Assembly (NCBI GenBank): GCA_944371905.1
Contig: CALVYA010000001.1
Location: 5,627-69,626, forward strand
Origin: an uncultured Bacilli bacterium
GTDB lineage: Bacteria; Bacillota_I; Bacilli_A; RF39; UBA660
DNA: 64,000 bases
Direction: 5' to 3'
Shown: one piece after another, positions 21,510 through 62,912 of the stretch
How positions within the stretch are numbered: the first letter of the stretch is position 1
Layout: each line of letters opens with the position of its first letter
Made by a program: the position numbers and the translations under genes
The notes under the pieces: generated by a model
Databases searched by the model: none
Seen by the model: the letters and a program-made list of their open reading frames with translations, nothing else
Told to the model about the DNA's origin: nothing

Positions 21510-24500
21510 ATGAAAGGGAGTAGGGGTATGTTTAAGAAGAGATATTTTTTTGTATTTATTATAATTGTAGGTGTTTTAATAGGAGGAAAGCTATTATATC
21601 AAAGTACTATTAGTAAAAATTTATCTATAAATAGTATATTGTCAAGTTCCTCTTATTCTTATTTACCGAATGAAGCGAAAGAATATGTAATGGATGTTTA
21701 TAATGAGACAGGAGAGTTGATTTTAACAGAGAAGAATAAGAAAGCAAATACTCCCTATTTAAATCCACAGTATGTAGAATATTTGAAATTAAGTAAGCAA
21801 GAAAGAGCAGAACTTGATTTAATTCCTAATGTTTATAGCATAGATTATTTTGCTAGTTCTTCATCTGAGGTGTCAGAGTTACCAGAATCATATGATTTAA
21901 GAAATGTTGATGGTAATAATTACGTCGGTCCTTTAGAAAATCAAGCTAGTTCAGGATTGTGTTGGGCTTTTGCTACTTTAGGACAAGCAGAAAGTTATCT
22001 TATGATTCAAAATAATCAACCATATAATGATGCTACACAGACTTTTTCAGAAAGACAATTAGATTATGCAACTAGTAATAATGGAATATTAGATTATAAT
22101 AATAAATTTGGTAGTAGAGAGTTATTAGATGATGGAGCTAATTTTTCTGATGCCATAGAAATAATGGCGTATGGTTTGTCTTTAGTGGATGAAAGTTTAA
22201 TGCCGTTTGATGAGAATTCGGAACCTAAAAAATTAAGTGATGTTTTAAATTTCAACAATTCTTTATATGAGGTGGAACAAACAATTGAATTAGGTACTGC
22301 TGCTGGAAAAACAAGTTTGGAATATCAATATGGTAATATATGTTCAGAATATGATGCCGTTGATGAGTATGAAGAATTTGAGAACTGTATCAATGAGTAT
22401 CAAAACTCATTACAAGAGAGAATTTTATATGAGGCTAAGGATAATATCATGAAATACGGAGGCGCTTATGCTGGAACGATAAGTCCAAATTCTAGTTGTG
22501 CTTTTCAAAATAGTGATGGAAGTTATGTTATCAATGTTTCTTCGTCATGCTATTCCATTCAGGAAGGACATGCTATGCATGTTATTGGTTGGGATGATAA
22601 TTATGAGTATGAGTATTGTGATGCAGGTAAACATAATACATCTTTAGTAAATGGTGGTTGTGAAGAAGGGGAATTAACGAAAGGAAAAGGCGCTTTTATT
22701 TTAAAAAACTCTTGGGGTAATACAACAGACTATGGATATGTGTATTTAACGTATAATTCCTTTGATACTAGTGCATCAGCACCTCAATTTTCATATATTA
22801 CCTCTATGTCTAGTAACGAATTAAAAAATTGGGATAATTTTTATCCGATGGAACAAGATTATGGTAGTTATGTAGGATATAGCAAGAACGTTTCCGAAAC
22901 TTTTGAAAACAAACTAGGTGGAACAGAAAAACTAGAAAAAATAAAGTTTATTATTGGCTCATATGATTCTTCTTTTACTTTAACTATAACTTCTGGTGAA
23001 ACTGTTTATAGTGAAGAGATAACAAAAGAACATCCAGGAATTTATACAGTAGATTTATCTGATAAAGATATTTATATAGATAGTTTAGAAACTTTTACCG
23101 TAAGTATAAGTAGTGATGTTTCATATTTAACTAATGATTCTATTTCTGCCTATACTTCAAATGTGGATGAGATTCCAATTATACAAACAGAGGAGATCGT
23201 AACAGACGATTTGTCTTTTGTTGTTTATTCTGATACGAAAAATATAGATTCAGATGAATTAATTACGTATAAACTATATGATGGCAAGACAGAACTTGAA
23301 AATTATTTGGTAGTTAAAAATAATGAGGTAGCCGCTAACAATGTTAATGCCTCTATAGAAATTGTTGGAAAAATTGAAAAGGGCGAATATACATTAGTAC
23401 AAAGTTATCATGATTATTCATATCAAACAAAGTTAACATTGACAAAATCATATAATTTGGAGGGGGATGGCACCATTGATAGTCCTTATATTATAAACAA
23501 TCAAGATGAATTAAAATTAATGTCAGATAATTTGTCAGCTTATTATAAACTGAATAGCGATATTGTATTAACGGAAGATTGGACACCGGTAGGGACAATG
23601 GAAGAACCATTTACAGGTGGATTTGATGGTAATGGGCACACCATATCTAATTTAACATCAAATAGTACTAATTTAGATTATGTCGGCTTATTTGGATATG
23701 TTAATGCTTTAGAAAATAGACCTATATATTTTAAAAATATAACTATAAAAGATGCCAATATCAGTGGAACTAATGAAGCAGGAATATTGATAGGACATCT
23801 ACAAATTCAAAACAACTCTAATATTTTAATAGATTCTATTTATATGATTGATGGTTTTCTATCCGGTAATGATGCTGGTTCTCTCATTGGTTATATTCTT
23901 AATGAGGGATATAGTGAAATACCTGAATCATTCGTAGTAAATAATGTATTTTCTTCTGTTAACATATATAATTCTACTAATTCTGGAGTAATTGGGGTTA
24001 ATTATGCAGTTGATTGTAATATTGATTTTTCAAATATTCAAAATATAGGTATTACTTCAAGTAATATTGTTGGATTACCCGCAATGAATAAAAATAATGC
24101 ATTTATAGGGCAATTTGCTAAAAATTCTTATCATATTAATAGTTTTATATTTAGTGGTTTTACTAAAACGAATGATAGTATTTTCAATCACTTAATTCAA
24201 AGTTCAGATTTTAATGGTTCTAATGGATATTATCTAAAAATGAAAAATAATTCTTGGGATAGTAGTAATAGTAGTGTATATGCAGTAGATTCGGTATTAA
24301 ATTTAAAGAATAAGGACAACTATCAATCTTGGGAAAATTTTGATAAATATTGGAAAATAGAAGTTATTGATGGAATAACTAGGATACCAATATTAAAAGG
24401 TGTTAATATTCCATATACTACAATATCTGATATTAGTATTAATATTGGTGATACAGTATCACTTCTTGAATATATTACTCCAACAACTGATGCCAATAGA

Positions 24501-26276
24501 ATTTCTTATCAAATAAAAGATAATGATAATATAATCGAATTTAAGAATGTATATCAAGACGATAGTACTATTCCTACAGATATAACAATGAAAGGATTAG
24601 AATATGGAGAAGCAACAATACATATTGTAAGTAATTATGATGGATATGAAAAGGATATAAAAATTACTGTTGCTGACCCAGAAAAGACAACTATTATTTA
24701 TCATTCAAATGATAATAATGATGAAACATATATCCAAAAAGTTGAATTAAATACCAATTATCAGTTAATTGAAAATCCATTTGTAAATAACGGATATAAA
24801 TTTAAAAATTGGAATACTTCTGCTGATGGTAGTGGGGATGAGTATCACCCTTATAAAGAAATGAATGGAACAGAAGGTACTGTTCATTTATATGCCCAAT
24901 GGGAACCTATTACATATAAAGTGATTTTTCACTCAAATTATGATACTGATGAATTTATAGAACAAACCTTTACCTATAATAAAGAAGAGAAATTAATGAA
25001 AAACCCATTTACCAATGATGGAAGTGTATTTCTTGGATGGAATACAAAACCTGATGGTACAGGCGATTCTTATTCGGATAATCAATTGGTTAGTAATTTA
25101 GTATCCATAAATAATGGTGAAATTCATTTATATGCTAAGTGGTCTAAAAAAACATATGATGTAAATTATTTTTATAACTTAAAAGATAAGAGAGAATTGA
25201 TTGATTATGACACTTATGAGTACGATGAAGAATTTAAATTACTAGATATAGAAGATGAAACTGGTTATAAATTTATTGGTTGGGGAACAAATCCGGATGG
25301 AACAGGAACAAATTATTTAGTAAATGAAACTGTAAAAAACCTTACAACAAATTCCGAGATTAATTTATATACTATTTTTGAACCTATAACATATAAAGTA
25401 GTGTTTCATTCTAATCATAGTCTAGAAGAGGTAAAAGAACAAATATTTACTTACGATAACGAAGAAGAGTTATCTTCGAATACATTTGAAAGAATTGGTT
25501 ATAAATTTGTTGGATGGAATACCAAAAAAGATGGAAGTGGAACAACCTATAGCGATGAGCAAATTATAAAGAACTTAACTAACAATGATAATGAAACAAT
25601 AACTTTATATGCAATGTGGGAGAAAGAAATAAGAAAGATTATATATAACGCTAATAATGAAACAGACGAGTCAATAACAAAAGAATATCATTACGATGAG
25701 AAAATCACATTAGAAAAGAATCCGTTTACAAAAGAAGGTTATACCTTTAAAGAGTGGAATACTAAACAAGATGGAAGTGGAACGGCATATCAAAGCGAAG
25801 AAATTATTACAATAACCAAAGATATTACTTTATATGCCATATGGGAAGAAGAATTTGATTATATAATTAATAATTATCATGTAGATTATACTAATAATTA
25901 TATAAGTAAAGTGATTGTTAATACTACTGTTGATAAATTTAAAAACAATATTATTTTAGGTAGCGGATATAGCATAGATATTGAATATAGAGAAATAAAT
26001 AATAATAGAATAATATATACGGGAAGTAAAACTCAAATATATAAAGGAGATAAAATATATAAGGAATTTACTAATGTTGTAATAGGTGATATTAATGGTG
26101 ATGGTATGATTAATTCAGCAGATTTGCTTAGAGTAAGACAACATTTATTAGGTAGTATTTCATTAACTGGAATATATTTCTTATCTTCAGATATTAATTA
26201 TGATAATTCTATTAATTCAGCAGATTTGCTTAGAATAAGACAACATTTATTAGGTAGTAAGCCTATATCAGAATAA
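21510..26276 (+). CDS. large secreted multidomain protein: papain-like (C1) cysteine peptidase domain, middle beta-rich region, five Listeria-Bacteroides (Flg_new) repeats, and a C-terminal type-I dockerin
   Basis: N-terminal TM/signal helix. QASSGLCWAFATLGQ (papain Cys site) and NSWGNTTDYGYVYL (Asn-Ser-Trp). Repeats of the form YK(V/I)xFHSN...GYKFxGWNT...DGSG...LYAxW, x5. Terminal DINGDGMINSADLLRVRQHLLG and DINYDNSINSADLLRIRQHLLG, which are the two Ca-binding dockerin segments. Confidence 0.8.
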   Translation: MKGSRGMFKKRYFFVFIIIVGVLIGGKLLYQSTISKNLSINSILSSSSYSYLPNEAKEYVMDVYNETGELILTEKNKKANTPYLNPQYVEYLKLSKQERAELDLIPNVYSIDYFASSSSEVSELPESYDLRNVDGNNYVGPLENQASSGLCWAFATLGQAESYLMIQNNQPYNDATQTFSERQLDYATSNNGILDYNNKFGSRELLDDGANFSDAIEIMAYGLSLVDESLMPFDENSEPKKLSDVLNFNNSLYEVEQTIELGTAAGKTSLEYQYGNICSEYDAVDEYEEFENCINEYQNSLQERILYEAKDNIMKYGGAYAGTISPNSSCAFQNSDGSYVINVSSSCYSIQEGHAMHVIGWDDNYEYEYCDAGKHNTSLVNGGCEEGELTKGKGAFILKNSWGNTTDYGYVYLTYNSFDTSASAPQFSYITSMSSNELKNWDNFYPMEQDYGSYVGYSKNVSETFENKLGGTEKLEKIKFIIGSYDSSFTLTITSGETVYSEEITKEHPGIYTVDLSDKDIYIDSLETFTVSISSDVSYLTNDSISAYTSNVDEIPIIQTEEIVTDDLSFVVYSDTKNIDSDELITYKLYDGKTELENYLVVKNNEVAANNVNASIEIVGKIEKGEYTLVQSYHDYSYQTKLTLTKSYNLEGDGTIDSPYIINNQDELKLMSDNLSAYYKLNSDIVLTEDWTPVGTMEEPFTGGFDGNGHTISNLTSNSTNLDYVGLFGYVNALENRPIYFKNITIKDANISGTNEAGILIGHLQIQNNSNILIDSIYMIDGFLSGNDAGSLIGYILNEGYSEIPESFVVNNVFSSVNIYNSTNSGVIGVNYAVDCNIDFSNIQNIGITSSNIVGLPAMNKNNAFIGQFAKNSYHINSFIFSGFTKTNDSIFNHLIQSSDFNGSNGYYLKMKNNSWDSSNSSVYAVDSVLNLKNKDNYQSWENFDKYWKIEVIDGITRIPILKGVNIPYTTISDISINIGDTVSLLEYITPTTDANRISYQIKDNDNIIEFKNVYQDDSTIPTDITMKGLEYGEATIHIVSNYDGYEKDIKITVADPEKTTIIYHSNDNNDETYIQKVELNTNYQLIENPFVNNGYKFKNWNTSADGSGDEYHPYKEMNGTEGTVHLYAQWEPITYKVIFHSNYDTDEFIEQTFTYNKEEKLMKNPFTNDGSVFLGWNTKPDGTGDSYSDNQLVSNLVSINNGEIHLYAKWSKKTYDVNYFYNLKDKRELIDYDTYEYDEEFKLLDIEDETGYKFIGWGTNPDGTGTNYLVNETVKNLTTNSEINLYTIFEPITYKVVFHSNHSLEEVKEQIFTYDNEEELSSNTFERIGYKFVGWNTKKDGSGTTYSDEQIIKNLTNNDNETITLYAMWEKEIRKIIYNANNETDESITKEYHYDEKITLEKNPFTKEGYTFKEWNTKQDGSGTAYQSEEIITITKDITLYAIWEEEFDYIINNYHVDYTNNYISKVIVNTTVDKFKNNIILGSGYSIDIEYREINNNRIIYTGSKTQIYKGDKIYKEFTNVVIGDINGDGMINSADLLRVRQHLLGSISLTGIYFLSSDINYDNSINSADLLRIRQHLLGSKPISE

Positions 26277-26292
26277 TTAGGAGGAGTTAGAA

Positions 26293-27645
26293 GTGAAGAA
26301 AATAAAAATTCTATTCATGGGAATAGTTACAATAATTACCTTATTTATCTTAAATACAGATGTGTTTGCTGCATCAGCTAGTTTATCCGCTAGTACTAGT
26401 AGTGTGTATGTTGGAGATCGATTTACGGTATCTGTTCATGTGAATGCGGCTGCTTGGAATGTGCATACCTCTGTTAGTGGGCCTGTAAGTGGTTGTATCA
26501 TTAATCAAGCAGATGCATCTATGGATGCAATGAATACTAATAAAACATTTACAGCTACTTGTACAGCAACAGGGGAAGGTACAATTACTGTTACTTTATA
26601 TGGTGATGTAACGGGTGATACAGATATTTATGCTACGCAGGTATCAGGTACTAGGAAGGTAACTGTATCTAAAAGACCTACTTCATCTGGTAATAATAAC
26701 AATAATAACCATAATACAAATACAACTGGAGGCAATAATTATAATAATAATACGCCTTCAAAATCTACTAATAACAAAATAAAAGAAATTTCTGTAGAAG
26801 GTTATGATTTAGTTAAAAAAGATGCTAATCATTATACATTAACTGTACCTACGGATGTAACAAGTATTAATGTTAAAGTAACTGCAGAAGATGCTAAAGC
26901 TAAAGTAACAGGAGTAGGGAATCATAATTTAAATATAGGAGATAATAATATTGAAGTTATTATTACTTCCGAGTCTGGTAGCCAAAACAAAATAAATATT
27001 AAAGTTATAAGAAAAGATGGATATTATTTGGAAGACTTAGAAGATGTATTAAATAATGATACTATTGATGAAGTTAATGTTAATATTTTATCAGATACTA
27101 TCATCAGTTCTGAAGAATTAAATAAAATAAAGAGTAGTAAAAAAATAGTTCATTTCAATTATAATAATAATGGTCGGTTACTGTATTCTTGGATTATAGA
27201 TGGTTCCTTAATAGATAATACTGTTGATATATTAACTACTATTTCTTATGATAGTGATAATAAGGCTACTATGTTAAGATTATCTAATTATGCAGATGGT
27301 TTATTTATAAGTGCTAGTGGTTCTAATAATATGCCTAAGGAAACGAAAATCAAATTATATGTTGGTGATAAATATAGTGATGGAGAATTAGTTAATGTTT
27401 ATTCTTATTCTAAGGATAATGAAAAATTAATTTTAGGACAAAGTGATTTAAAAGTGAAGGATGGTTATATAGTATTTGATGCTAGCGAAGCAGACGATTA
27501 TCTAGTTACTATGTCTAATATTTCTTCTGTTGATGACACTACTTCATCTAGTAATTTAGTTTATATAATAATTATTAGTTTGCTATTGTTAGTAATAGCG
27601 GTGCTTTCCTTCTTTCTAATTAAAAAGATGAAAAATAAGAAATAA
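26293..27645 (+). CDS. C-tail-anchored surface protein with cadherin-like beta-sandwich domain(s) and possible N-terminal cohesin-like domain
   Basis: Signal peptide, Asn-rich linker, cadherin-like repeat (KEISVEGYDL...TAEDAKAKVTGVG...NNIEVIITSESGSQNKINIKVIRKD). C-terminal TM helix followed by KKMKNKK. Starts 17 nt after the dockerin protein's stop. Confidence 0.55.
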   Translation: MKKIKILFMGIVTIITLFILNTDVFAASASLSASTSSVYVGDRFTVSVHVNAAAWNVHTSVSGPVSGCIINQADASMDAMNTNKTFTATCTATGEGTITVTLYGDVTGDTDIYATQVSGTRKVTVSKRPTSSGNNNNNNHNTNTTGGNNYNNNTPSKSTNNKIKEISVEGYDLVKKDANHYTLTVPTDVTSINVKVTAEDAKAKVTGVGNHNLNIGDNNIEVIITSESGSQNKINIKVIRKDGYYLEDLEDVLNNDTIDEVNVNILSDTIISSEELNKIKSSKKIVHFNYNNNGRLLYSWIIDGSLIDNTVDILTTISYDSDNKATMLRLSNYADGLFISASGSNNMPKETKIKLYVGDKYSDGELVNVYSYSKDNEKLILGQSDLKVKDGYIVFDASEADDYLVTMSNISSVDDTTSSSNLVYIIIISLLLLVIAVLSFFLIKKMKNKK

Positions 27646-32491: not shown

Positions 32492-33277
32492 ATGAGAGAA
32501 GTGGCACGTCACAAAGTGGAAATCAGTGGCGTGAATACAGCAAATATCAAAGTATTAACGAGCGAAGAAATGGAAGAACTATTCAAAAAAATGCAAAATG
32601 GTGATCTGGCAGCTCGTGATGAATTAGTTAGCGGTAATTTGAAATTAGTTTTGTCTATATTAAAAAAATTCTCAAGGAAAGATGAAAATATGGATGATTT
32701 ATTTCAAATAGGATGTATTGGGCTTTTAAAGGCAATCGATAATTTTGATTTATCTTATGGTGTAAAATTTTCTACTTATTGTGTTCCTATGATTCAAGGA
32801 GAAGTAAGAAGATATTTAAGAGATAATAATAGTATTAGAGTAAGTAGATCTTTAAAAGATCTAGCTTATAAAGCGATGAAGACAAAAGATGAATGGATCT
32901 TAGAAAAAGGAGTAGAACCGTCGATAGAAGAATTAGCTAAAGTATTAGAAGTATCTACTTTTGATCTTATCAATGCATTGGATTCAATGAGAGATCCGAT
33001 TAGTATATTTGAACCTATTTATTCTGATGGAGGAGATACTATCTACTTATTTGATCAAATAGAAGATAAACATGTAAAAAATGATGATTTAGATATAAAA
33101 TTATCGGTAAATGAAGCTATTGATAATTTAAGTGAACGCGAGAAGTTCATTTTGGATCAACGATTTGTCATTGGAAAAACACAAATGGAAATAGCTAGTG
33201 AATTAGGAATAAGTCAAGCCCAAATATCTAGAATTGAAAAAAATGCTATAGATAATTTGAAATCTACTTTAAAATGA
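32492..33277 (+). CDS. sigG: sporulation sigma factor SigG-like (forespore sigma-70 family)
   Basis: Recalled from memory, near-colinear with B. subtilis SigG (ISGVNTANIKVLTSEEMEELFKKMQNGD, DLFQIGCIGLLKAIDNFDLSYGVKFSTYCVPMIQGEVRRYLRDNNSIRVSRS, SQAQISRIEKNA). 261 aa. Confidence 0.85.
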   Translation: MREVARHKVEISGVNTANIKVLTSEEMEELFKKMQNGDLAARDELVSGNLKLVLSILKKFSRKDENMDDLFQIGCIGLLKAIDNFDLSYGVKFSTYCVPMIQGEVRRYLRDNNSIRVSRSLKDLAYKAMKTKDEWILEKGVEPSIEELAKVLEVSTFDLINALDSMRDPISIFEPIYSDGGDTIYLFDQIEDKHVKNDDLDIKLSVNEAIDNLSEREKFILDQRFVIGKTQMEIASELGISQAQISRIEKNAIDNLKSTLK

Positions 33278-34522: not shown

Positions 34523-35650
34523 TTAATATTTTATTCTTTTTTCTTTTGTATTGTTTATATTGAGCACTAAACCAATCAATATCATATAAGATAGAAGACT
34601 ACTACCTCCATAACTAATAAATGGTAAAGTAATTCCTGTAATGGGTAATAATCCAATTGTCATCCCAATATTTTGAACTTGTTGATATAAGAAGATACCA
34701 ATAATACCAGCGATAGTATATTTATCGATCTTGTTAATAGTAGATCTACCTATTTGAATAATGTGTAGATCAAAAAGCAACAAAAATATTACTAAAAAAA
34801 TGGATCCTATTAAACCAAAGTTAGAGGCAAAGACAGAGAAAATAAAATCGGTTCCTGATTCTGGAAAATAAATAGGAGTATTTTTAAACCCATGTCCTAA
34901 GATAAAACTAGAACCAATAGCAGCTAAAGAATTTTCCAGTTGCATCCCACTGCCACTACGCCAATTGATAATTCGATCCATTCGATAGAAAAAACTACTG
35001 CCAAATATTTCAATAAATAAATCTTGTTGTAGAAAATATAAGTATAAAAATCCACTTATTAAACTAATTCCTATGATCCCTAATAATATATACCAAAATG
35101 GTTTGATTCCGCTAATAAAAAGCATAGTAAATGTAATAATCAAATAGATAATAACAGCTCCAGTATCAGGTTCTAAAAAAGTTAATACACTAGGAATTAC
35201 TACTATGATAAATACTTGAACTAAGAGTAAAAATTCATCTTTTAAAGTAGGATTTTTATGTTTTTTATGAAAAGAATCGATACATCTTGCAAGCATTAGA
35301 ATAAGACTTATTTTCATAAATTCACTAGGTTGAATACTACCAATTCCTTTAATAATATACCAACATTTACTACCATTGATATCAGGAGCCAAAAACAATA
35401 ATCCTAAAAGTAATATTACATTAGCTAAATAAATATACCAAGCATATTTATAAAAAAAAGGATTGTCTAGTTTGATAACAAGAAAAATAATAATAAAGCC
35501 GATAGCATACCATAGTGCTTGTTTTAAAGCAAGATTTCCTAAAGTAGGAGATAGATAAGTTAAGGCTGAATAAATAGAAGTAGTACTTATTATAAAAAAT
35601 ATAAATAAAGAAAAAATCATAAATTTGTCAAATTTATATTTTTTAAACAT
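34523..35650 (-). CDS. SEDS-family peptidoglycan polymerase (FtsW/RodA/SpoVE)
   Basis: About 10 TM helices and conserved SEDS segments (SEFMKISLILMLA, PFISYGGSSLL). The ATG at 35650 (MFKKYKF) has SD GGTGA; the track start 35662 is less likely. Confidence 0.8.
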   Translation of the reverse strand: MFKKYKFDKFMIFSLFIFFIISTTSIYSALTYLSPTLGNLALKQALWYAIGFIIIFLVIKLDNPFFYKYAWYIYLANVILLLGLLFLAPDINGSKCWYIIKGIGSIQPSEFMKISLILMLARCIDSFHKKHKNPTLKDEFLLLVQVFIIVVIPSVLTFLEPDTGAVIIYLIITFTMLFISGIKPFWYILLGIIGISLISGFLYLYFLQQDLFIEIFGSSFFYRMDRIINWRSGSGMQLENSLAAIGSSFILGHGFKNTPIYFPESGTDFIFSVFASNFGLIGSIFLVIFLLLFDLHIIQIGRSTINKIDKYTIAGIIGIFLYQQVQNIGMTIGLLPITGITLPFISYGGSSLLSYMILIGLVLNINNTKEKRIKY

Positions 35651-35731
35651 AAATATCACCATTATTATTATGATTTATTTGGTAATTTTTATTTACTAAA
35701 TACATAAAATATTGGTAGGAAGAGTGATATT

Positions 35732-36082
35732 ATGAGTAAACAACTACCATCTATTTTTAAAAATTCATCTGATAAAAGAATTAATAATAATAAGCGTGTT
35801 TTTTATTCCAAATATGAAAGTATAGGAAATGTAGTAGAAAAAAGTGATAATCGTAGCAATAATAATATAAATAACTTGGATTCTCCTAGTAGTTTTACTA
35901 ATTCTATAGATAATTTATTCAAAAGAAAACAATTTATATTTAATGTTCCTGTAGAAATAGTAACGAAGGAGAATACGTTTAATACTAAAATAGTAAGTAA
36001 GGTAGATGATCATATATTAACTAGTAATGGAAAAATAATTCAATTAGAAGATATTTTATCAATAAAAATAAATGGTGAATAA
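35732..36082 (+). CDS. hypothetical protein
   Basis: 116 aa, Asn/Ser-rich N-terminus, small C-terminal beta domain. Confidence 0.4.
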   Translation: MSKQLPSIFKNSSDKRINNNKRVFYSKYESIGNVVEKSDNRSNNNINNLDSPSSFTNSIDNLFKRKQFIFNVPVEIVTKENTFNTKIVSKVDDHILTSNGKIIQLEDILSIKINGE

Positions 36083-36143: not shown

Positions 36144-36560
36144 TTATATTCCACTAACGAATGTATCTGTTAAACATCTTAATGCTCCAACACAGTTTAA
36201 GTTAATTGTAAAGAAATCATTGGTTGAAATATATGGAAAACTAGTTGCTTCGTTAGTATCTGGATTAGGTGCTAATACTCTAAATGTTGCACAATTGTCA
36301 TCTAAGTTTTCAATTCTAAATACGGTACTTGTACCAGTAGTTCCATTTAATGTGTATGGTAATGACCAAAGTTCATTATTAGAACAATTATATAGAGTAA
36401 TAGGTCTAGTATTTAGGCATATACCACTTGGAGTAGGCCCTAGAAATGGTTTGGTACATCCTGTTGGACAATCGCAATCTTCTCCTTTTTGTTGTAATGT
36501 CAGAATTAATTCTAAAGTTTTAATAAAAGAACAAGAACATTCATTATTATTTCCACACAT
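36144..36560 (-). CDS. CotZ/CotY/ExsY-family cysteine-rich spore coat / exosporium protein
   Basis: Cys-rich 138 aa. EDCDCPTGC, NTRPIT..Y.C.NN, STVFRIENLDDNCATFRVL and INLNCVGALRCL align with recalled B. subtilis CotZ (EDCPTGC...NTVFFRVERV...C...DCFCAINCL). Confidence 0.7.
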   Translation of the reverse strand: MCGNNNECSCSFIKTLELILTLQQKGEDCDCPTGCTKPFLGPTPSGICLNTRPITLYNCSNNELWSLPYTLNGTTGTSTVFRIENLDDNCATFRVLAPNPDTNEATSFPYISTNDFFTINLNCVGALRCLTDTFVSGI

Positions 36561-36575
36561 AATTATCCCCCTTTC

Positions 36576-36989
36576 TTATAAATCTACAATAGTATCAGCT
36601 AAACATTTTAATACACATACGCACCCTAAATTAATAGTTGCAGTATTTCTTGTTGTAATATATGGTCTTATAGTATCTGTGGTATCAGGATTAGGGATTA
36701 AGATAGATACTACTAAACATCCATCCTCTACACTTTCTACTCTAAAAATACTACTGGTTCCTGTTAATCTTTCTCCATTAATTACTGTATCATAATTAAG
36801 GGAAATTAAGTTATTGTTACATCCATAAAATGTGATGGGTCTTGTATTAAAACAAAGACTAGGCATATCTACACCTAAAAATGGTCTGCTACAAGTATTA
36901 TCAAAACATTCTTCTTTTTCTGAACTATGTTGTAAAATATCAATTACTTTTAAAATTTTAGTAAAGCAACAACAATTACTACTCATCAA
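36576..36989 (-). CDS. CotZ/CotY/ExsY-family cysteine-rich spore coat / exosporium protein, tandem paralogue
   Basis: 137 aa, same motif series (CSRPFLG, NTRPITFYGC, SSIFRVESVEDGC, INLGCVCVLKCL). 15 nt upstream of its paralogue, so an operon. Confidence 0.7.
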   Translation of the reverse strand: MMSSNCCCFTKILKVIDILQHSSEKEECFDNTCSRPFLGVDMPSLCFNTRPITFYGCNNNLISLNYDTVINGERLTGTSSIFRVESVEDGCLVVSILIPNPDTTDTIRPYITTRNTATINLGCVCVLKCLADTIVDL

Positions 36990-37187
36990 ATCAACTCCTT
37001 TTTATGTTTTTCTATTATAGGATATTCTATATATTGTATCTGGTGTCGTATTAACACCTATAATTTATCATATTCTTTTACTTTTCTAATAATGAAATCG
37101 TTTATAAATTTAGTTTAAATAATTTACATTTATCTTATTTTTTGATATTATTTTTATAGAATAGGATAAGAAGGTAAGGAAAGCAGT

Positions 37188-38780
37188 ATGAAAAGATTTT
37201 ATATAAGTTTTTTATTGATGTTTTTACTAGTGATTCCTCTTAATGTAGAGGCAGAGTCAAAATTAACTTTGGAATGCGATAATAATAATGTTGCAGGAGA
37301 GACTTTAAGTTGTATAGTAAAGTCTAGTAGTGATATAGCTTATAATAAATTAGAAAGTAATATAGAATTGCCTAATAGTGCTAGTGTTACATTTAAAGCT
37401 ACTAGTGGTATTACAGGTGCTATTTCTAATAATAAATTAATTGTTACTAGTACTAGTAATATTTCTAATGGTAATTTAGGAACACTTCAAATAAAATTTT
37501 CCAGTGATACGACAGGAAATAATGTAATTAAATTATCTAATATAAAAATTTTTAATAATCAAGAGGAAGTAGATATTACTAGTGATGTAAGTGCTACTGT
37601 CAAAGTAAAATCTACGGTGAATACTTTATCTTCTCTTACATTAGAAGATTGTGGATCTTGTAGTTTAAGTCCAGCTTTTAAAGAAAATTTAACAATTTAT
37701 ATTGTTAATACAGAATCTAATAAAATTACTTTTAATGCTAAAGCAAATGGAAATGCCAAAATAGTTGGAGCGGGTACTAAAACTTTAACTAAAGATAGTG
37801 AAACGTTTAGAATTATTGTTACGTCTGAAGTAGGAGAGTCTAGAGAATATAGTATTACAGTGAAAAGAAATATAAAAAAATCTAATGATAATGCTTTAAA
37901 AGAATTATCTATTGATAAGGGAGAATTAAAATTAAAAGAGTCGAATGGTATTAGTAGTTATAATGCTGTTGTAGATAGCGATGAAGTAACTATTATAGCT
38001 GTTGCTAATGATAGTAAAGCAACAATTACAGGAGTTGGTAAGAAAACTCTTGATTATGGAAAGAATGAATTTACTATTATTGTTACTGCAGAAGATGGAA
38101 CTTCCAGAAGCTATTTGATTGTGATTAATCGTACGGATACTAGGAATGCAAATGCATATCTTAAAGATTTAACTATTGATGGTGAAGATATTGATTTTGA
38201 AAAAGATATTATTGAATATGAGTATTATGTTAGTGATGATATTACTGAAATAGAGATCGATGCTATTCCAGAGTTAGAAAGTTCTACTGTTGAAATAGAA
38301 GGAAATAAAGATTTCAAAGAAGGAGAGAATATTGTTACTATTACTGTGAAAGCAGAAGATGGTAGTGAAAAAATTTATACCATTGTAGTTATTAAAGGTA
38401 AAATTATTAATGATGATATTTATTTAGATGATTTAACAATTCATGGATATGATATTGACTTTAAACAAGATAAATTTGGTTATACTCTTACGATCGGAAA
38501 AGAAGATCATCTAGATATTAATACTATATTTGATACGGATAAATATACAGTTGAAATCGTAGGAAATGAAGAATTGCAGGATGGTAGTATTATAAAAATA
38601 ATAATTACGGACGAAGATGGTAATAGTAATATTTATAAAATAAAGATTGAAAAAAGCCAAGAAAAAGAAGGTATAAAAAAAGAAGATATCAATTATATTC
38701 CTATCATTATGAGTGGTATATTGGGATTATTAGTAATTTTAAATATTATGCAAATTGTAAAAAAAGTTCGTAATAAATAA
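37188..38780 (+). CDS. C-tail-anchored surface protein: N-terminal cohesin-like domain plus about 4 cadherin-like beta-sandwich repeats
   Basis: Signal peptide. About 80-aa repeats ending ...TxxxxTGxGxKTL..G.N.FTIxVTAEDGxSxxYxIxI. C-terminal TM helix followed by KKVRNK. Divergent from the cotZ-like operon. Confidence 0.6.
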   Translation: MKRFYISFLLMFLLVIPLNVEAESKLTLECDNNNVAGETLSCIVKSSSDIAYNKLESNIELPNSASVTFKATSGITGAISNNKLIVTSTSNISNGNLGTLQIKFSSDTTGNNVIKLSNIKIFNNQEEVDITSDVSATVKVKSTVNTLSSLTLEDCGSCSLSPAFKENLTIYIVNTESNKITFNAKANGNAKIVGAGTKTLTKDSETFRIIVTSEVGESREYSITVKRNIKKSNDNALKELSIDKGELKLKESNGISSYNAVVDSDEVTIIAVANDSKATITGVGKKTLDYGKNEFTIIVTAEDGTSRSYLIVINRTDTRNANAYLKDLTIDGEDIDFEKDIIEYEYYVSDDITEIEIDAIPELESSTVEIEGNKDFKEGENIVTITVKAEDGSEKIYTIVVIKGKIINDDIYLDDLTIHGYDIDFKQDKFGYTLTIGKEDHLDINTIFDTDKYTVEIVGNEELQDGSIIKIIITDEDGNSNIYKIKIEKSQEKEGIKKEDINYIPIIMSGILGLLVILNIMQIVKKVRNK

Positions 38781-38826: not shown

Positions 38827-39138
38827 ATGAAATTAGAATACATAATTATTTTAGTTATAATTTTTATTATACTGTTAGCTATTTTAAAAGCAGGGAGAAA
38901 GGATGCACATCTACAATTAAATAAATTGGTAGACTATCTAGGTGGTAAAGATAATATTATCTCTACAGAAACCAATTTATCTCGTTTTAAAGTAACATTA
39001 AAGGATGTCTCTTTGGTTGATAAAGAAGCAATTCAAAAATTAGGAGCTAAAGGTATTGTAGAAATTGATAATCAATTAAAAATAATTTTAGGTGCTAATT
39101 CTAAGCAGTTGAAAAAATATATTGATGATCTAAAATAA
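38827..39138 (+). CDS. membrane-anchored PTS EIIB(Glc)-like domain protein lacking the phospho-Cys
   Basis: One TM helix, then LVDYLGGKDNIISTETNLSRFKVTLKD...GIVEIDNQLKIILG, which follows the glucose-family EIIB fold (LGGKENI..CITRLR) with Cys replaced by Asn. The track start 38782 overlaps the upstream gene; ATG 38827 has SD GTGGTGA. Confidence 0.45.
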   Translation: MKLEYIIILVIIFIILLAILKAGRKDAHLQLNKLVDYLGGKDNIISTETNLSRFKVTLKDVSLVDKEAIQKLGAKGIVEIDNQLKIILGANSKQLKKYIDDLK

Positions 39139-39177: not shown

Positions 39178-39216
39178 AATTAATCTCATATAATGTTAAT
39201 AGAAAGAAGGCATTAT

Positions 39217-40476
39217 ATGAGATTTTTTGATGGTTTTTTATTAAATACAATTTTACTTTTATTTCCATTATTTTTATATCTTATTTATGTAGCATACCAA
39301 AAAACAACAAATCGTGAAACGACGAATCAATTTTTTGAAATTGCATTATTTTTATCTATATTTTTAATTAGTCGTTATGGATATTTTAAAGATAATTGTT
39401 ATATATCAATTTTAATTAACATTCCTTTATTGTTTGCTTATTTGAAAGGAAGAAAATTAATTGCGATCATTATTTCTATTATTTTGATTTTTCACTATAT
39501 TATTGTATTTAATTATAGTCCTAGTATTGTTATTTTTGAATACTGTACTTATTTTATATTGTATATTCTATCAAGAAAAAAGAATATTACTTCTAATTAT
39601 ATTATTAATAGTTTTACAATTATTAAAGCTTTTATTTTATCTTTTTTTACGTTTTACTTTATTGCTCCTACTAATGTAGTATGGTTAAATCTTTTGAATA
39701 TTATTTTATCCATTGGCGTTTTTTATGTAGCCGCTATCTTTTATTATAAATTAATCGGAAAAATAGAAGATATGGTAACGATTAATAATACTTTGAAAGA
39801 ATTAGAAAAGGAAAAAACAATTAGAAATTCGTTATTTAAAATCACTCACGAAATAAAAAATCCAATCGCAGTATGTAAAGGATATCTAGATATGATGGAT
39901 CTAGATAATAAAAAGAAAGTAAATAAATATATTCCTATTATTAAAAGTGAAATTAATAGGACTTTATCTCTGATGGATGATTATTTAGATTTTTCAAGGG
40001 TAAAAATAGAGAAAGATATTATAGATATCATTATGTTAATAGAAGATACTGCTAGATCGATGGATTTATTATTAAAAGATAAAAATATCAATACTTGTTT
40101 TGATATTATAGATGATGAAGTATATATGATGGCTGATTATAATAGATTAAAGCAGGTTTTAGTTAACATCTTAAAAAATAGTATGGAAGCAAAAATAGAA
40201 AATCAATTATTAACAATAAATATAAAAACTGAATTGACTAAAGATAAAATAAAAATAATAATTAGCGACGATGGCATTGGTATGACTAGAGAAGAATTAG
40301 AACATTTAGGAGAAGTTTTCTATACTACGAAATACAACGGAACTGGAATAGGAGTCAATTTATCTAAAGAGATTATTGAAAGACATAATGGAACACTTAC
40401 TTATGAGTCAGAGAAGTATATTGGTACTAATGTAATTATCGAGTTACCTATCGATCCAGAACTAAATAGTTGTTAG
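39217..40476 (+). CDS. orphan membrane sensor histidine kinase
   Basis: Polytopic N-terminal domain. H-box ITHEIKNPIAVCKGYLDMM. HATPase_c N, G1 and G2 boxes (IISDDGIGM, GTGIGVNL). ATG 39217 has SD GAAGG; the track start 39193 overlaps the -10 element. No cognate response regulator adjacent. Confidence 0.8.
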   Translation: MRFFDGFLLNTILLLFPLFLYLIYVAYQKTTNRETTNQFFEIALFLSIFLISRYGYFKDNCYISILINIPLLFAYLKGRKLIAIIISIILIFHYIIVFNYSPSIVIFEYCTYFILYILSRKKNITSNYIINSFTIIKAFILSFFTFYFIAPTNVVWLNLLNIILSIGVFYVAAIFYYKLIGKIEDMVTINNTLKELEKEKTIRNSLFKITHEIKNPIAVCKGYLDMMDLDNKKKVNKYIPIIKSEINRTLSLMDDYLDFSRVKIEKDIIDIIMLIEDTARSMDLLLKDKNINTCFDIIDDEVYMMADYNRLKQVLVNILKNSMEAKIENQLLTINIKTELTKDKIKIIISDDGIGMTREELEHLGEVFYTTKYNGTGIGVNLSKEIIERHNGTLTYESEKYIGTNVIIELPIDPELNSC

Positions 40477-41001: not shown

Positions 41002-42108
41002 ATGGAAAAAGAAAAAAAAGGAAAGAAAATTTGGAAATATTTAATTATAATATTATTAATATTATTGGTAATTTCTTTAATAATAGGAGGTTATTTTTTA
41101 AAATTATATTTATATCCTACAGTATCATTTTCATTAAAGGGAGAAGAGAAGTATCTATTATCTTATGGTGATAAATATGAAGAAGCAGGAGCAGAAGCTA
41201 AAGTTAATGGGAAGGATTATAATAATAAAATAAAAATAGATGATAGCAAAGTTAAAATAGATGAATTAGGCGAATATAAAATTAATTATAGTATTACTTT
41301 ACCAAATGGGAAACAAGAAAATTTAGAGAGAATTATAAAAGTAGTGGATGATATTAAACCAGAAATTAAATTAAAAGGAGATAATCCTATAAAAATAAGT
41401 TATGGATCTACTTTTACTGAACCTGGATATGAAGTATCAGATAACTATGATGAAAGTGATACTCTAAAAGTAGAAGTTACTTATGACAGGACAATTAATA
41501 CTAAAGAGTCAGGGACTTATCAAATTACTTATACAGTTACAGATAGTAATCATAATTCTAATAGTATAGTGCGTGAGGTTATTGTAAGCCCTAGAATTGT
41601 AGTAATAAATGGAATTACTTATGTAGAAGGAATATTAATTGTAAACAAGAAGTATTCTCTTCCTGCTAATTATAATCCAGGTGAGAATAAGGAAGCAGCA
41701 AACCAATTATATTTAATGAGGATGGAAGCTGCTAAATATGGATATGATTTAAGATATTGTTCAGGATTTAGATCTTATAATTATCAAACTAATTTATATA
41801 ACAATTATGTAAAAAAATATGGTCAAGCTATGACGGATACTTTCTCAGCAAAACCAGGTCACTCTGAACATCAAACAGGACTTGCCTTTGATATTGGTGC
41901 AATTGATGATAATTTTGGTGATACAGAAACTGGTAAATGGTTAGCGATTAATGCTCATAAATATGGTTTTATTATTCGCTATCCAAAAGGAAAACAGGAT
42001 GTAACAGGATATAAATATGAACCTTGGCATGTAAGATATTTAGGAGTAGAACTAGCTACTAAAGTATACAAAAGTGGATTAACCTTGGAAGAATATTTAA
42101 ATATTTAG
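41002..42108 (+). CDS. membrane-anchored D-Ala-D-Ala carboxypeptidase (peptidase M15B / VanY-like) with Ig-like (DUF5011-type) domains
   Basis: N-terminal TM helix, two Ig-like repeats (KPEIKLKGDNPIKISYGSTFTEPGYEVSDNYD...). C-terminal M15 motifs SGFRSYNYQ, HSEHQTGLAFDI and EPWHVRY. Confidence 0.75.
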   Translation: MEKEKKGKKIWKYLIIILLILLVISLIIGGYFLKLYLYPTVSFSLKGEEKYLLSYGDKYEEAGAEAKVNGKDYNNKIKIDDSKVKIDELGEYKINYSITLPNGKQENLERIIKVVDDIKPEIKLKGDNPIKISYGSTFTEPGYEVSDNYDESDTLKVEVTYDRTINTKESGTYQITYTVTDSNHNSNSIVREVIVSPRIVVINGITYVEGILIVNKKYSLPANYNPGENKEAANQLYLMRMEAAKYGYDLRYCSGFRSYNYQTNLYNNYVKKYGQAMTDTFSAKPGHSEHQTGLAFDIGAIDDNFGDTETGKWLAINAHKYGFIIRYPKGKQDVTGYKYEPWHVRYLGVELATKVYKSGLTLEEYLNI

Positions 42109-59909: not shown

Positions 59910-61361
59910 ATGGAGAAAGATACAATAAGAAAGGTAAAAAGAGTCAAAAAAAGGATCAAAATTCATAAAAAAGCAGTTGCTATGACCGCTATTTCATTAA
60001 TTTTAATTGCGGTGATTATTGCTGTTTGTTTTATATTTTTTGTTCCTAATATTAAATTATTAGGAGATAAAGTAATAACGTTGAAATTAGATGACACTTA
60101 TAAAGATAGTGGAATAGTTGCAACTTATCGCGGTAAAGATGTAACTGATGAAGTAAAAATAGAAGATAATATTGAATATGGTAAAGTAGGTACTTATAAA
60201 ATAACTTACAGTATTAAAAAAGGAATTTTTGAAACTGTGAAAAAACGAACAATTAAAATAATTGATGATATAAAACCAGAAATTATTTTAGAAGGTGAAG
60301 AAGAAGTTACTATTTGCCCAGGCAAAGAATTTGAGGAAATAGGTTATAAAGCTACAGATAATTATGATGGGGATATTACCAAAAAAGTGGAAGTTAAAGA
60401 GTCTGATGATAAAATCACTTATACAGTAGAAGATAGTAGTGGTAATAAGGCAACTGTTACTAGAAAAATTGTACGAAACGATAAGGAAGGTCCAAAAATA
60501 ACTTTAAAAGGTGATGAAACAATATACATCAAGAAAGGAGAAACTTTTAAAGATCCTGGATATACTGCTATGGATAATTGTGATGGAGATGTATCTAAAA
60601 ATATCGAAGTAGAAGGTGAAGTAGATACTAGTCAAATAGGGACACAGATTATTACTTATAAAGTTAAAGATAAAAAAGGAAATGAAACTAAAACAACTAG
60701 GGAAATTTATGTTACTAGTCCGAATGGTCAAGGTGGAATGATTTATTTAACCTTTGATGATGGACCTAGCAATGTCACAGGACCAATATTAGATGTACTG
60801 AAAAAAAGAGGAGTAAAAGCTACGTTCTTTGTTATTAATCAATCAGATAATCTTAATTATTTAATTAAAAGAGCTTATGATGAAGGACATACGATAGGAC
60901 TTCATTCTTATAGTCATCAATATAATTTGGTATATAAATCTACAAATGCTTATTTTGATGATTTAAATGCTATTAGTGAAAAAGTAGAAAAAATAACTGG
61001 TGAGAAATCTAAGATTATTCGATTCCCTGGTGGAGGTTCTAATACTATTAGTAAAAAGTATTCTCAAGGGATCATGACAGTGTTAACTAATGAAGTGTTA
61101 TCACGGGGATATCATTATTTCGATTGGAATGTTGATTGTAATGATGCAGGTGGAGCTAAAACCAAAGAGCAAGTATATAGTAATGTAGTTAATAATTTAA
61201 GACATAATCAAGCCAATGTGGTTTTAATGCATGATTTTCAAAATAATTACAAGACATTAGAAGCATTAGATGATATAATAAGTTATGGATTAGCAAAAGG
61301 TTATACATTTGCAGCAATAGATATGAGCACGCCGTTAGTTAGGCATAGAGTAAATAATTAA
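59910..61361 (+). CDS. membrane-anchored polysaccharide deacetylase (NodB/CE4) with two Ig-like (DUF5011-type) domains
   Basis: N-terminal TM. Ig-like repeats (KPEIILEGEEEVTICPGKEFEEIGYKATDNYDGD). CE4 motifs TFDDGP and HSYSHQ. Confidence 0.8.
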   Translation: MEKDTIRKVKRVKKRIKIHKKAVAMTAISLILIAVIIAVCFIFFVPNIKLLGDKVITLKLDDTYKDSGIVATYRGKDVTDEVKIEDNIEYGKVGTYKITYSIKKGIFETVKKRTIKIIDDIKPEIILEGEEEVTICPGKEFEEIGYKATDNYDGDITKKVEVKESDDKITYTVEDSSGNKATVTRKIVRNDKEGPKITLKGDETIYIKKGETFKDPGYTAMDNCDGDVSKNIEVEGEVDTSQIGTQIITYKVKDKKGNETKTTREIYVTSPNGQGGMIYLTFDDGPSNVTGPILDVLKKRGVKATFFVINQSDNLNYLIKRAYDEGHTIGLHSYSHQYNLVYKSTNAYFDDLNAISEKVEKITGEKSKIIRFPGGGSNTISKKYSQGIMTVLTNEVLSRGYHYFDWNVDCNDAGGAKTKEQVYSNVVNNLRHNQANVVLMHDFQNNYKTLEALDDIISYGLAKGYTFAAIDMSTPLVRHRVNN

Positions 61362-61364
61362 GGA

Positions 61365-62912
61365 GTGAGTTATATGAAAAGGAAAAAGGGGATTTTATTA
61401 TTAGTAGTAGGATTACTTATATTAATTCCATCTATTGTTTTAGCAGCGCAACCGACAGTTGAATTATCAGGAGTTTTAAATGCTAAACCTGGTGATACTG
61501 TAGCGTATGATATTAAGATTAATTCTTCAGGGGATACACGTGCTTCTAAATATGAAGCTAATTTAGAGTATGATCAGAATATTCTTGAATTAAAAAGTAT
61601 AACCGCTAAATCTTGGACGAAAGAAAGCGGTTCTAGTGATTTAAATTTCTCATATCAAGATGGAATTTCTGGAAGTTCTACTATTGCTACTATCACTTTT
61701 AAAGTTAAGGATAACGTTCCAAAACAAACAACTAATATTGCTTTAAAAGATATTAAGATTACAACTTTAGATGAAGAAGATAGTTCAAGTATTGTCACTA
61801 TTTCGGAAAATGCTTCTCATAAGGTATCTTTATCTGTTAAGTCAACAGATAATACTTTAAAAGATTTAAAAGTCGATGGTAAAACAATAGAAGATTTTAA
61901 AAAAGATAATTATGAGTATGAATTATCGGTTTCTTCTGATACTGATGAAGTAGAAATAAAAGCAACACCAACAAACGCTAATGCAACATTTGAAGAGGGA
62001 TTTGGTAATAGAGATGTTAAATTAGACTATGGAGAAAATGAAGTTTTAATAAAAGTGAAAGCAGAATCTGGTGAAATTCAGGTATATAAATTACTAATTA
62101 CTCGTGAAGATGATCGTAATACTAATAATGATTTAAAAGAAATTATTATTAATTCTGGTAGAATAAAATTAGAACTATCTAAAAATAAAGTTAATTATAC
62201 AATTAAAACTTACAAATTAAAAGAGTTAGAAATCGATGCTGTGCCAGTGGATGAAAAAGCAAAAGTAGAAATAGAAATACCTGATGAAATAATAGTTGGA
62301 GATAATGTAGTTACTATAACAGTAACTAGTGAAACTGGTGAGGAAAAAGTTTATACTTTAACATTTGAAAATAGTGATAAAGAATTAGATACTAAATTAA
62401 AAAATTTATATATCAAAGGTTATAATATTGATTTTGATAAAAATACGATGGTTTACCAAATTGTGTACAATAAAAAATATAAAAATGGATTAGATTTTAG
62501 TATTGTTACAGCTGATGATGAAGAGTTAGTTGGATATACTATTTTCTATAATGGAGAAGAAGTAACAGATGATACTAATATTTCTTTAAAACCTGGAGAT
62601 AAGTATGAAATTCGAGTATATCCACTAGGTTTGGAAGAAGGAGATAGTAGTGAGACTACTACTTATACAATTGAAATAGTAAAAGATAAACGTGTTAGCT
62701 TTTTCTTAATTTTAGAAATTTTAATTGCTTTAGTATTGTTTGTATTAATAATTGTTCAAGTTGTAAAAAGAAATAAAAAACGTAAAAACAACGCTAATCA
62801 AGAGAACAATAATAATGTAGTATCTAATGAAAAATTGCAAGAAGAAGTAAATAAAACAAAAGTAATTGATACAGATGAATTAAATAAAATAAATGAATTA
62901 GATAAAGAATAG
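61365..62912 (+). CDS. C-tail-anchored surface protein: N-terminal cohesin domain plus cadherin-like beta-sandwich repeats
   Basis: Signal peptide. The segment TVELSGVLNAKPGDTVAYDIKIN...LEYDQNILEL...IATITFKVKDN matches the type-I cohesin pattern (compare recalled CipA NAKPGDTVRIPV...YDPNVLEI...FATIVAKVK). Then about 4 cadherin-like repeats. C-terminal TM followed by KRNKKRKNN. Confidence 0.65.
   Translation: MSYMKRKKGILLLVVGLLILIPSIVLAAQPTVELSGVLNAKPGDTVAYDIKINSSGDTRASKYEANLEYDQNILELKSITAKSWTKESGSSDLNFSYQDGISGSSTIATITFKVKDNVPKQTTNIALKDIKITTLDEEDSSSIVTISENASHKVSLSVKSTDNTLKDLKVDGKTIEDFKKDNYEYELSVSSDTDEVEIKATPTNANATFEEGFGNRDVKLDYGENEVLIKVKAESGEIQVYKLLITREDDRNTNNDLKEIIINSGRIKLELSKNKVNYTIKTYKLKELEIDAVPVDEKAKVEIEIPDEIIVGDNVVTITVTSETGEEKVYTLTFENSDKELDTKLKNLYIKGYNIDFDKNTMVYQIVYNKKYKNGLDFSIVTADDEELVGYTIFYNGEEVTDDTNISLKPGDKYEIRVYPLGLEEGDSSETTTYTIEIVKDKRVSFFLILEILIALVLFVLIIVQVVKRNKKRKNNANQENNNNVVSNEKLQEEVNKTKVIDTDELNKINELDKE

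Follow-up and report, generated by a model that had tools for sequence, protein, structure and literature searches.

The docking of dockerins to cohesins is best known from cellulosomes. Cohesin- and dockerin-like modules outside cellulosomes were reportedly surveyed by Peer et al. 2009 (FEMS Microbiol Lett 291:1, cited in PMC6030884), who are said to have found them in many lineages and in non-cellulolytic proteins. The gene considered here falls in this general class of modules. It lies on the plus strand at 37188..38780 of the window, that is, of the whole 64-kb stretch analyzed (contig CALVYA010000001.1 of an uncultured Bacilli bacterium), and is called 37188 after its first position, as are the other genes below. 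The cohesin fold of its N-terminal domain (the head) and the family-wide pairing with dockerin genes provide strong evidence for reading the product as a membrane-anchored display protein, the head of which retains a secreted, probably dockerin-bearing partner; we hold this reading with about even confidence.

The closest structures to the head of 37188 are the non-cellulosomal cohesins of Clostridium perfringens NagJ/GH84C and NanJ/GH33 (PDB 2w1n, 2vo8, 2o4e), but the sequence identity is only 11-12%, and the 37188-type head is distinguished by an invariant pair of cysteines. While the C. perfringens cohesin is one module in a large enzyme, the cohesin-fold head of 37188 forms the N-terminus of a dedicated membrane-anchored stalk protein. 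We propose that 37188 could work in a way resembling the C. perfringens cohesin-dockerin pairs and as a minimal anchoring scaffoldin, in the manner of C. thermocellum OlpA/OlpC/SdbA and Ruminococcus flavefaciens ScaE. Unlike these scaffoldins, it has a single cohesin and a membrane helix instead of S-layer homology (SLH) domains or an LPXTG signal, and its stalk is made of cadherin-like repeats. Moreover, cargo genes beside the relatives of 37188 encode papain-like or subtilisin-like proteases and not carbohydrate-active enzymes, and the hosts are uncultured gut Bacilli represented by metagenome-assembled genomes (MAGs), in contrast to the known cellulolytic clostridia. As neither Pfam nor a motif scan detected an SLH domain or a sortase signal in 37188, it is not a cellulosomal anchoring scaffoldin in the strict sense. 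The head undetected by Pfam, the Cys pair, the membrane helix, the cadherin-like stalk and the protease cargo of relatives set 37188 apart from these known systems, and in the literature we found no paper describing an architecture of cohesin-fold head, cadherin-like stalk and membrane helix.

The open reading frame (ORF) of 37188 starts with ATG and encodes a type I membrane protein of 530 amino acids (aa), as supported by Pfam, 388 homologues and hydropathy. The signal peptide (residues 1-22, 37188..37253, ...NVEA|ES; hydrophobic segment 2-24) has P17, V20 and A22 unchanging across orthologues and would be cleaved after residue 22. It is followed by the head (residues 23-143, 37254..37616) with Cys30 and Cys42. 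The stalk consists of four tandem repeats of about 85 aa, alignable with those of two other genes of the window, 61365 and 26293. Repeat 1 (residues 144-229, 37617..37874), containing a CxxC motif, is defined by the repeat alignment and invariant columns; repeat 2 (residues 233-315, 37884..38132) by Pfam, BLASTP with 61365 and the repeat alignment; repeat 3 (residues 320-402, 38145..38393; top Pfam stretch 325-402) by Pfam and the repeat alignment; and repeat 4 (residues 409-490, 38412..38657) by the repeat alignment. The C-terminal part (residues 502-530, 38691..38777), recognized by conservation, hydropathy and the motif scan, comprises a juxtamembrane NYIP motif, the membrane helix and a KKVRNK tail. 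All these features are on the plus strand. The CxxC motif (C155, C158; nt 37650-37661) is invariant in 17 aligned orthologues and absent in distant family members and in 61365. Apart from these two, the protein has no cysteines other than C30 and C42.

The hydropathy scan revealed only two hydrophobic segments in each of 37188, 26293 and 61365, namely the signal peptide and, near the C-terminus, a helix that precedes Lys/Arg residues; the motif scan found no LPXTG-like sorting motif near the C-terminus of any of them. An earlier reading of the DNA from the sequence only (the sequence-only reading) had listed ORFs at 26293, 37188 and 61365, all of which do exist, and had called their products C-tail-anchored, without LPXTG. 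The C-terminal helix, the Lys/Arg tail and the lack of LPXTG hold, but since each of the three starts with a signal peptide, they are single-pass membrane proteins of type I and not tail-anchored ones in the strict sense.

In superpositions, the predicted structure of the 37188 head fits solved cohesins more closely than other immunoglobulin (Ig)-like folds (all our models were single-chain predictions), and this fold comparison shows the modeled N-terminal domain to have the cohesin fold. A weaker and tentative tie to cohesins is also present at the level of sequence, and it leads mainly to 61365, the only one of the three window anchors with a Pfam Cohesin domain (PF00963, 43.7 bits with the cut-off 24.1), as was anticipated by the sequence-only reading, where 61365 was considered the most convincing cohesin match. 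In particular, from a small set of 1,512 ORFs the profile of the 37188 N-terminal domain (A2) picks up the 61365 cohesin (hmmsearch E 6.9e-7), and hhalign aligns the head profile with this cohesin at 80% probability (E 1.4e-5), compared with only 12.7% for the Pfam-positive cohesin of locus L018.

The 61365 gene (61365..62912, plus strand, GTG start) encodes a protein of 515 aa with a signal peptide, a cohesin (residues 32-143, 61458..61793, plus strand), three cadherin-like repeats, a membrane helix and a 45-aa cytoplasmic tail. It has the same architecture as 37188, with the parts in the same order, but has neither the Cys pair nor repeat 1, and differs also by the 45-aa cytoplasmic tail. 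The two proteins are collinear including the N-terminal domains (BLASTP E 5e-29), their heads align collinearly, and their repeats are 32% identical, so that 37188 and 61365 are clear paralogues. A lookup of public records for the exact sequence of the 61365 protein returned no entry, probably because the gene had been called with another start.

Heads of the 37188 type form a large family. A profile search, exhaustive over 1.84 billion representatives, yielded at least 827 sequence clusters with E <= 1e-3, of which 304 reach E <= 1e-10, with the head placed almost always right after the signal peptide. We inspected 101 family representatives (alignment A8 / P0309-P0410). The Cys pair corresponding to C30 and C42 is invariant in them, cadherin-like repeats are present in 67 and a C-terminal hydrophobic segment in 65, while in 34 representatives this segment, with a basic tail after it, comes just behind NPKTG, NPQTG or SPxTG, a sortase-type signal similar to those of clostridial SrtB substrates. 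Two representatives carry a dockerin of their own and would be adaptor-like. All relatives from genome collections come from MAGs of uncultured gut "Bacilli bacterium" (human, goat, sheep, rabbit, chicken). The 37188-type proteins are a surface-anchored family with a cohesin-fold head missed by current domain libraries.

The second line of evidence is provided by gene neighborhoods. A dockerin hidden Markov model built from six modules was scanned over 41 loci and the window; the resulting pairing counts describe a few dozen loci that were collected through similarity searches rather than sampled at random. For 37188-type anchors outside the orthologue group, a dockerin gene is located directly upstream in all five loci, and four of these five genes encode papain-like C1 proteases. 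In L004, a protein with Peptidase_C1, lectin-like and dockerin parts is encoded ahead of the anchor, with overlapping stop and start codons, and in L016, L017 and L021 the anchor is preceded by a dockerin-bearing papain-like peptidase, each about 1,000 aa long. In L005 (6591-9617), a 262-aa protein consisting of little but a dockerin is followed by a 192-aa stand-alone head (profile E 2.9e-13) and then by the full anchor P0044; this trio is itself preceded by four small genes without Pfam matches. Moreover, the Pfam-positive cohesin anchor of L018, with five cadherin-like repeats, is situated directly downstream of a gene for a dockerin protein. The repeated pairing with dockerin genes, mostly those of papain-like proteases, suggests that surface retention of proteases is widespread in gut bacteria.

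The window contains a single dockerin, and its likely partner is not 37188. It is the C-terminal module (nt 26085-26252; type I, Dockerin_1, 50.2 bits) of 21510 (21510..26276, plus strand), a secreted papain-like protease (Peptidase_C1 by Pfam) with Flg_new repeats. The next gene, 26293 (26293..27645, plus strand, GTG start), encodes an analogous anchor of 450 aa, composed of an Ig-like N-terminal domain of about 100 aa (nt 26365-26682, by fold comparison), a poly-Asn linker, one cadherin-like repeat, a membrane-proximal domain of about 165 aa (residues ~245-410) without a Pfam match, and a membrane helix. The Asn-rich low-complexity linker between the head and the repeat (nt 26680-26790, residues ~130-160) varies in close homologues from about 20 to more than 50 residues.

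The 26293-type gene follows a dockerin-bearing gene at a distance of 16-19 nt in four of four loci, that is, in the window (21510-27645), L039 (2483-8674), L040 (3037-8494) and L041 (7001-8858). The cargo comprises Peptidase_S8, LRR_5 and Dockerin_1 in L039 and L040, and in L041 it is a gene ending with a dockerin. When homologues of the 21510 dockerin module were sought, all that came up were gene calls on short fragments, which provided no list of cargo proteins; one of them, L041, has the same pairing. The last ~100 residues of the cargo proteins, including the dockerin, are 54-71% identical to those of 21510 despite the switch of the catalytic part from C1 to S8 with leucine-rich repeats, while the dockerins encoded beside 37188-type anchors differ considerably in sequence from the one of 21510. 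Such matched dockerin/anchor pairs are the pattern expected, at the level of sequence, of specific receptor-ligand couples. Since the dockerin module is conserved in all genes that precede a 26293-type anchor, regardless of the kind of protease, 26293 is most likely the partner of the 21510 dockerin, and the two constitute a candidate receptor-ligand pair. Hence the more general suggestion of the sequence-only reading, that proteins of this kind could anchor dockerin proteins, is very probably right, given an upstream dockerin gene in 5/5 loci of the 37188 type, 4/4 of the 26293 type and one with a Pfam-positive cohesin. Its suggestion that the anchored proteins include the 21510 protease is not supported for 37188, as nothing ties 37188 to this dockerin, and 26293, not 37188, is the probable receptor.

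The three window proteins had also been taken to share one architecture, with a cohesin-like N-terminal domain and several cadherin-like repeats each. This is correct for 37188 and 61365, with four and three repeats, respectively, the head being a cohesin by fold in the former and by Pfam in the latter. In contrast, 26293 has one repeat, which is its only region of similarity to 37188 or 61365, and its N-terminal domain shows no profile similarity to that of 37188. A generic Ig-like fold, envisaged from the beginning as the alternative for these domains, was not observed for the 37188 head, but the 26293 head does have it. The family of 26293 may thus bind dockerins through a non-cohesin Ig-like head, or through the membrane-proximal domain, and would then represent a novel kind of receptor for them. 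Of the two domains proposed for profile searches, Cadherin-like PF12733 is present in all three proteins (70.4 bits in 37188 with the cut-off 24.2; the two values for 26293 and 61365 are 31.5 and 61.9 bits), and PF00963 is found in 61365 but in neither 37188 nor 26293.

As a display protein, 37188 would be exported by the Sec pathway as a single-pass membrane protein, its four-repeat cadherin-like stalk holding the head off the membrane and carrying it up to the cell wall or across it. In this position the head would act as a monovalent receptor that keeps a secreted partner, most likely a dockerin-bearing one, on the cell surface. By analogy with the paired relatives, this copy too would bind a dockerin, and its partner is probably encoded elsewhere in the genome. 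Among the structured parts of the protein, the head is the least conserved one: the mean pairwise identity among orthologues is 38% in the head, 56-63% in the repeats and 60% in the membrane segment. The low conservation of the head, along with the fact that 37188 is the fastest-evolving gene of its neighborhood, fits an exposed binding module.

Several observations weigh against this reading. PF00963 does not match 37188 even at E 10, and it matches none of 28 orthologous N-terminal domains and none of the 101 family representatives. Neither phmmer nor a profile hmmsearch of the head against PDB sequences produced a match. Moreover, a cohesin fold by itself is no proof of dockerin binding. 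Finally, a dockerin gene is missing from the 8-10 kb around 37188 and around its counterpart in each of the five distinct orthologous loci, and the sole dockerin of the 64-kb window, that of 21510, makes a better match for 26293. The NCBIfam scan likewise gave 37188 no cohesin assignment. Because of the lack of a dockerin gene within this distance at every orthologous locus, 37188 is to be regarded as an orphan receptor; 61365 is another such orphan. As for Pfam, surveys based on PF00963 would have missed the 37188-type head, since none of the 101 representatives matches it, and this suggests that inventories of this kind undercount cohesins.

It is beside these observations that an adhesin should be considered. 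The head would then bind a non-dockerin ligand on the host, in the diet or on a neighboring cell, and the repeats would form a stalk or bind carbohydrates, the whole protein providing attachment in the gut rather than enzyme display. An adhesin would need no dockerin gene nearby and no Pfam-recognizable cohesin, but, with the cohesin fold and the dockerin genes beside the relatives on the other side, we consider it unlikely.

The position of 37188 offers two further explanations. The gene is divergent from two CotZ-family genes on the minus strand, at 36576..36989 (137 aa; PF10612, 29.4 bits; 76-94% identical in orthologous loci) and 36144..36560 (138 aa; PF10612, 47.1 bits), and is separated from this pair by 198 bp, which agrees with the cotZ-like operon described in the sequence-only reading. 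ORFs in the antisense direction at 36220-36795 and 36832-37020 were dismissed as shadows of the cotZ genes. On the other side, 37188 is followed on the plus strand by a 103-aa protein (38827..39138) that has a membrane helix at its N-terminus and a domain similar to the EIIB of the phosphotransferase system, identified by profile search, and by a histidine kinase with a multi-pass membrane N-terminus (39193..40476; conserved gene order).

Orthologous loci are available from five species-level genomes: L006, L007, L001 (= L008), L003 (~ L009) and L010. In the order that they share, sigG is followed by genes for a glycosyltransferase and a FtsW/RodA/SpoVE-family protein; then come a small CotO-like ORF, the minus-strand cotZ pair, the anchor, the EIIB-like gene and the histidine kinase. 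L010 starts inside the RodA-family gene, and the order of sigG and the glycosyltransferase gene refers to the other loci. In the window, SigG is encoded at 32492-33277 (plus strand; NF006071, 375.7 bits with the cut-off 372), the FtsW/RodA/SpoVE-family protein, scoring best as RodA, at 34523-35662 (minus strand), and the CotO-like ORF of 116 aa at 35732-36082 (plus strand; sub-threshold CotO match, E 0.0027). These three neighbors indicate that the organism is a spore-former. Identity to the window proteins is 84-95% for SigG, 83-96% for the glycosyltransferase, 74-91% for the RodA-family protein, 75-96% for both copies of CotZ, 87-97% for the EIIB-like protein and 69-93% for the histidine kinase, compared with 45-76% for the 37188 anchor. 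As the orthologous genomes are close relatives, the conserved gene order says little about functional linkage, and more distant members of the 37188 family are located in unrelated genomic contexts.

The intergenic DNA between cotZ and 37188 is far more conserved than the adjoining anchor gene. Statements on promoters and operons below are based on consensus matches and conservation. On the 37188 strand, a candidate sigma-A-like promoter with an extended -10 box (TTTACA-17-TGnTATTAT, 37123..37151) has its key bases invariant in six aligned loci, i.e. the window and five orthologues. An inverted repeat located nearer to cotZ, GGTGTCGTaTTAAcACC (37042..37058; GGTGTCGTnTTAAyACC across the loci), is also invariant in the six loci and represents a candidate operator; the Rfam scan of the intergenic region including this repeat gave no match. 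On the cotZ strand, region 36990-37100 contains GAATATCyTATAATAG with a TATAAT box, followed by a ribosome-binding site. Simple patterns for the consensuses of sigma E, F, G and K found no conserved match in the six aligned intergenic regions.

These data bear on the idea that 37188 is a sporulation-specific surface protein, co-regulated with the divergent cotZ pair through the shared promoter region and acting at the forespore or spore surface. The divergent arrangement with the 198-bp gap, retained in all orthologues, the highly conserved intergenic DNA with its inverted repeat and the abundance of sporulation genes in the neighborhood are in its favor. However, the conserved element in front of 37188 fits sigma-A, and simple patterns for the four sporulation sigma factors gave no conserved match. 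Coat and crust proteins are assembled in the mother-cell cytoplasm, those of the CotZ type having no signal peptide, whereas the signal peptide and the membrane anchor of 37188 place its ectodomain outside the cytoplasm. There is also no match of 37188 to the coat family (CotZ/CotY/ExsY, PF10612) in Pfam or NCBIfam. Moreover, synteny with cotZ is observed only among genomes whose housekeeping neighbors are 74-96% identical. Therefore the suggestion of the sequence-only reading is not supported beyond the shared intergenic DNA: a spore-surface role is hardly probable, and the adjacency to cotZ is probably positional rather than functional.

In the display reading, 37188 would be transcribed during growth from its own promoter of the sigma-A type, probably together with the EIIB-like and histidine-kinase genes. 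No terminator-like site was found in the 46-nt gap between 37188 and the EIIB-like gene or in the 54-nt gap between the latter and the kinase gene, and, judging from the sequence, the three genes may share one transcript. The EIIB-like gene is the most conserved one of the neighborhood, and it is always situated between the anchor and the histidine kinase. The phospho-accepting Cys motif of EIIB-Glc is CITRLR; in the EIIB-like protein the active-site Cys motif is replaced by NLSRFK.

A sensor co-receptor is the explanation suggested by this gene order, which, with gaps of 46-54 bp, is kept in all orthologous loci. In this case 37188, the pseudo-EIIB and kinase 39193 would be one module, with ligand capture relayed via the membrane helix, possibly to the sporulation decision. 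Such a role is in line with a membrane and juxtamembrane region more conserved than is usual in a plain anchor (NYIP..IM residues are invariant in orthologues), with the absence of a response regulator gene adjoining the kinase at this locus, and with the neighboring sigG, FtsW/RodA/SpoVE-family and cotZ genes. Still, the evidence comes from genomic context, in genomes so closely related that the order of genes carries little weight, and other family members do not have these neighbors. We find a co-receptor very unlikely, and equally so the more specific version in which 37188 is the extracellular arm of a three-gene signaling module with the catalytically dead EIIB-like protein and the kinase, placed among sporulation genes and coupling the surface docking of a ligand, dockerin-bearing or not, to a developmental decision.

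Among minor observations, some relatives are filed in public records as "uncultured Mycoplasma sp."; the GC content of the window is 27.4%. The gene immediately upstream of 61365 (59910-61361, plus strand), stopping 4 nt before it, encodes a membrane-anchored polysaccharide deacetylase, which has three Bact_surface_Ig-like domains but no dockerin, and a VanY carboxypeptidase of similar build is encoded at 41002-42108.

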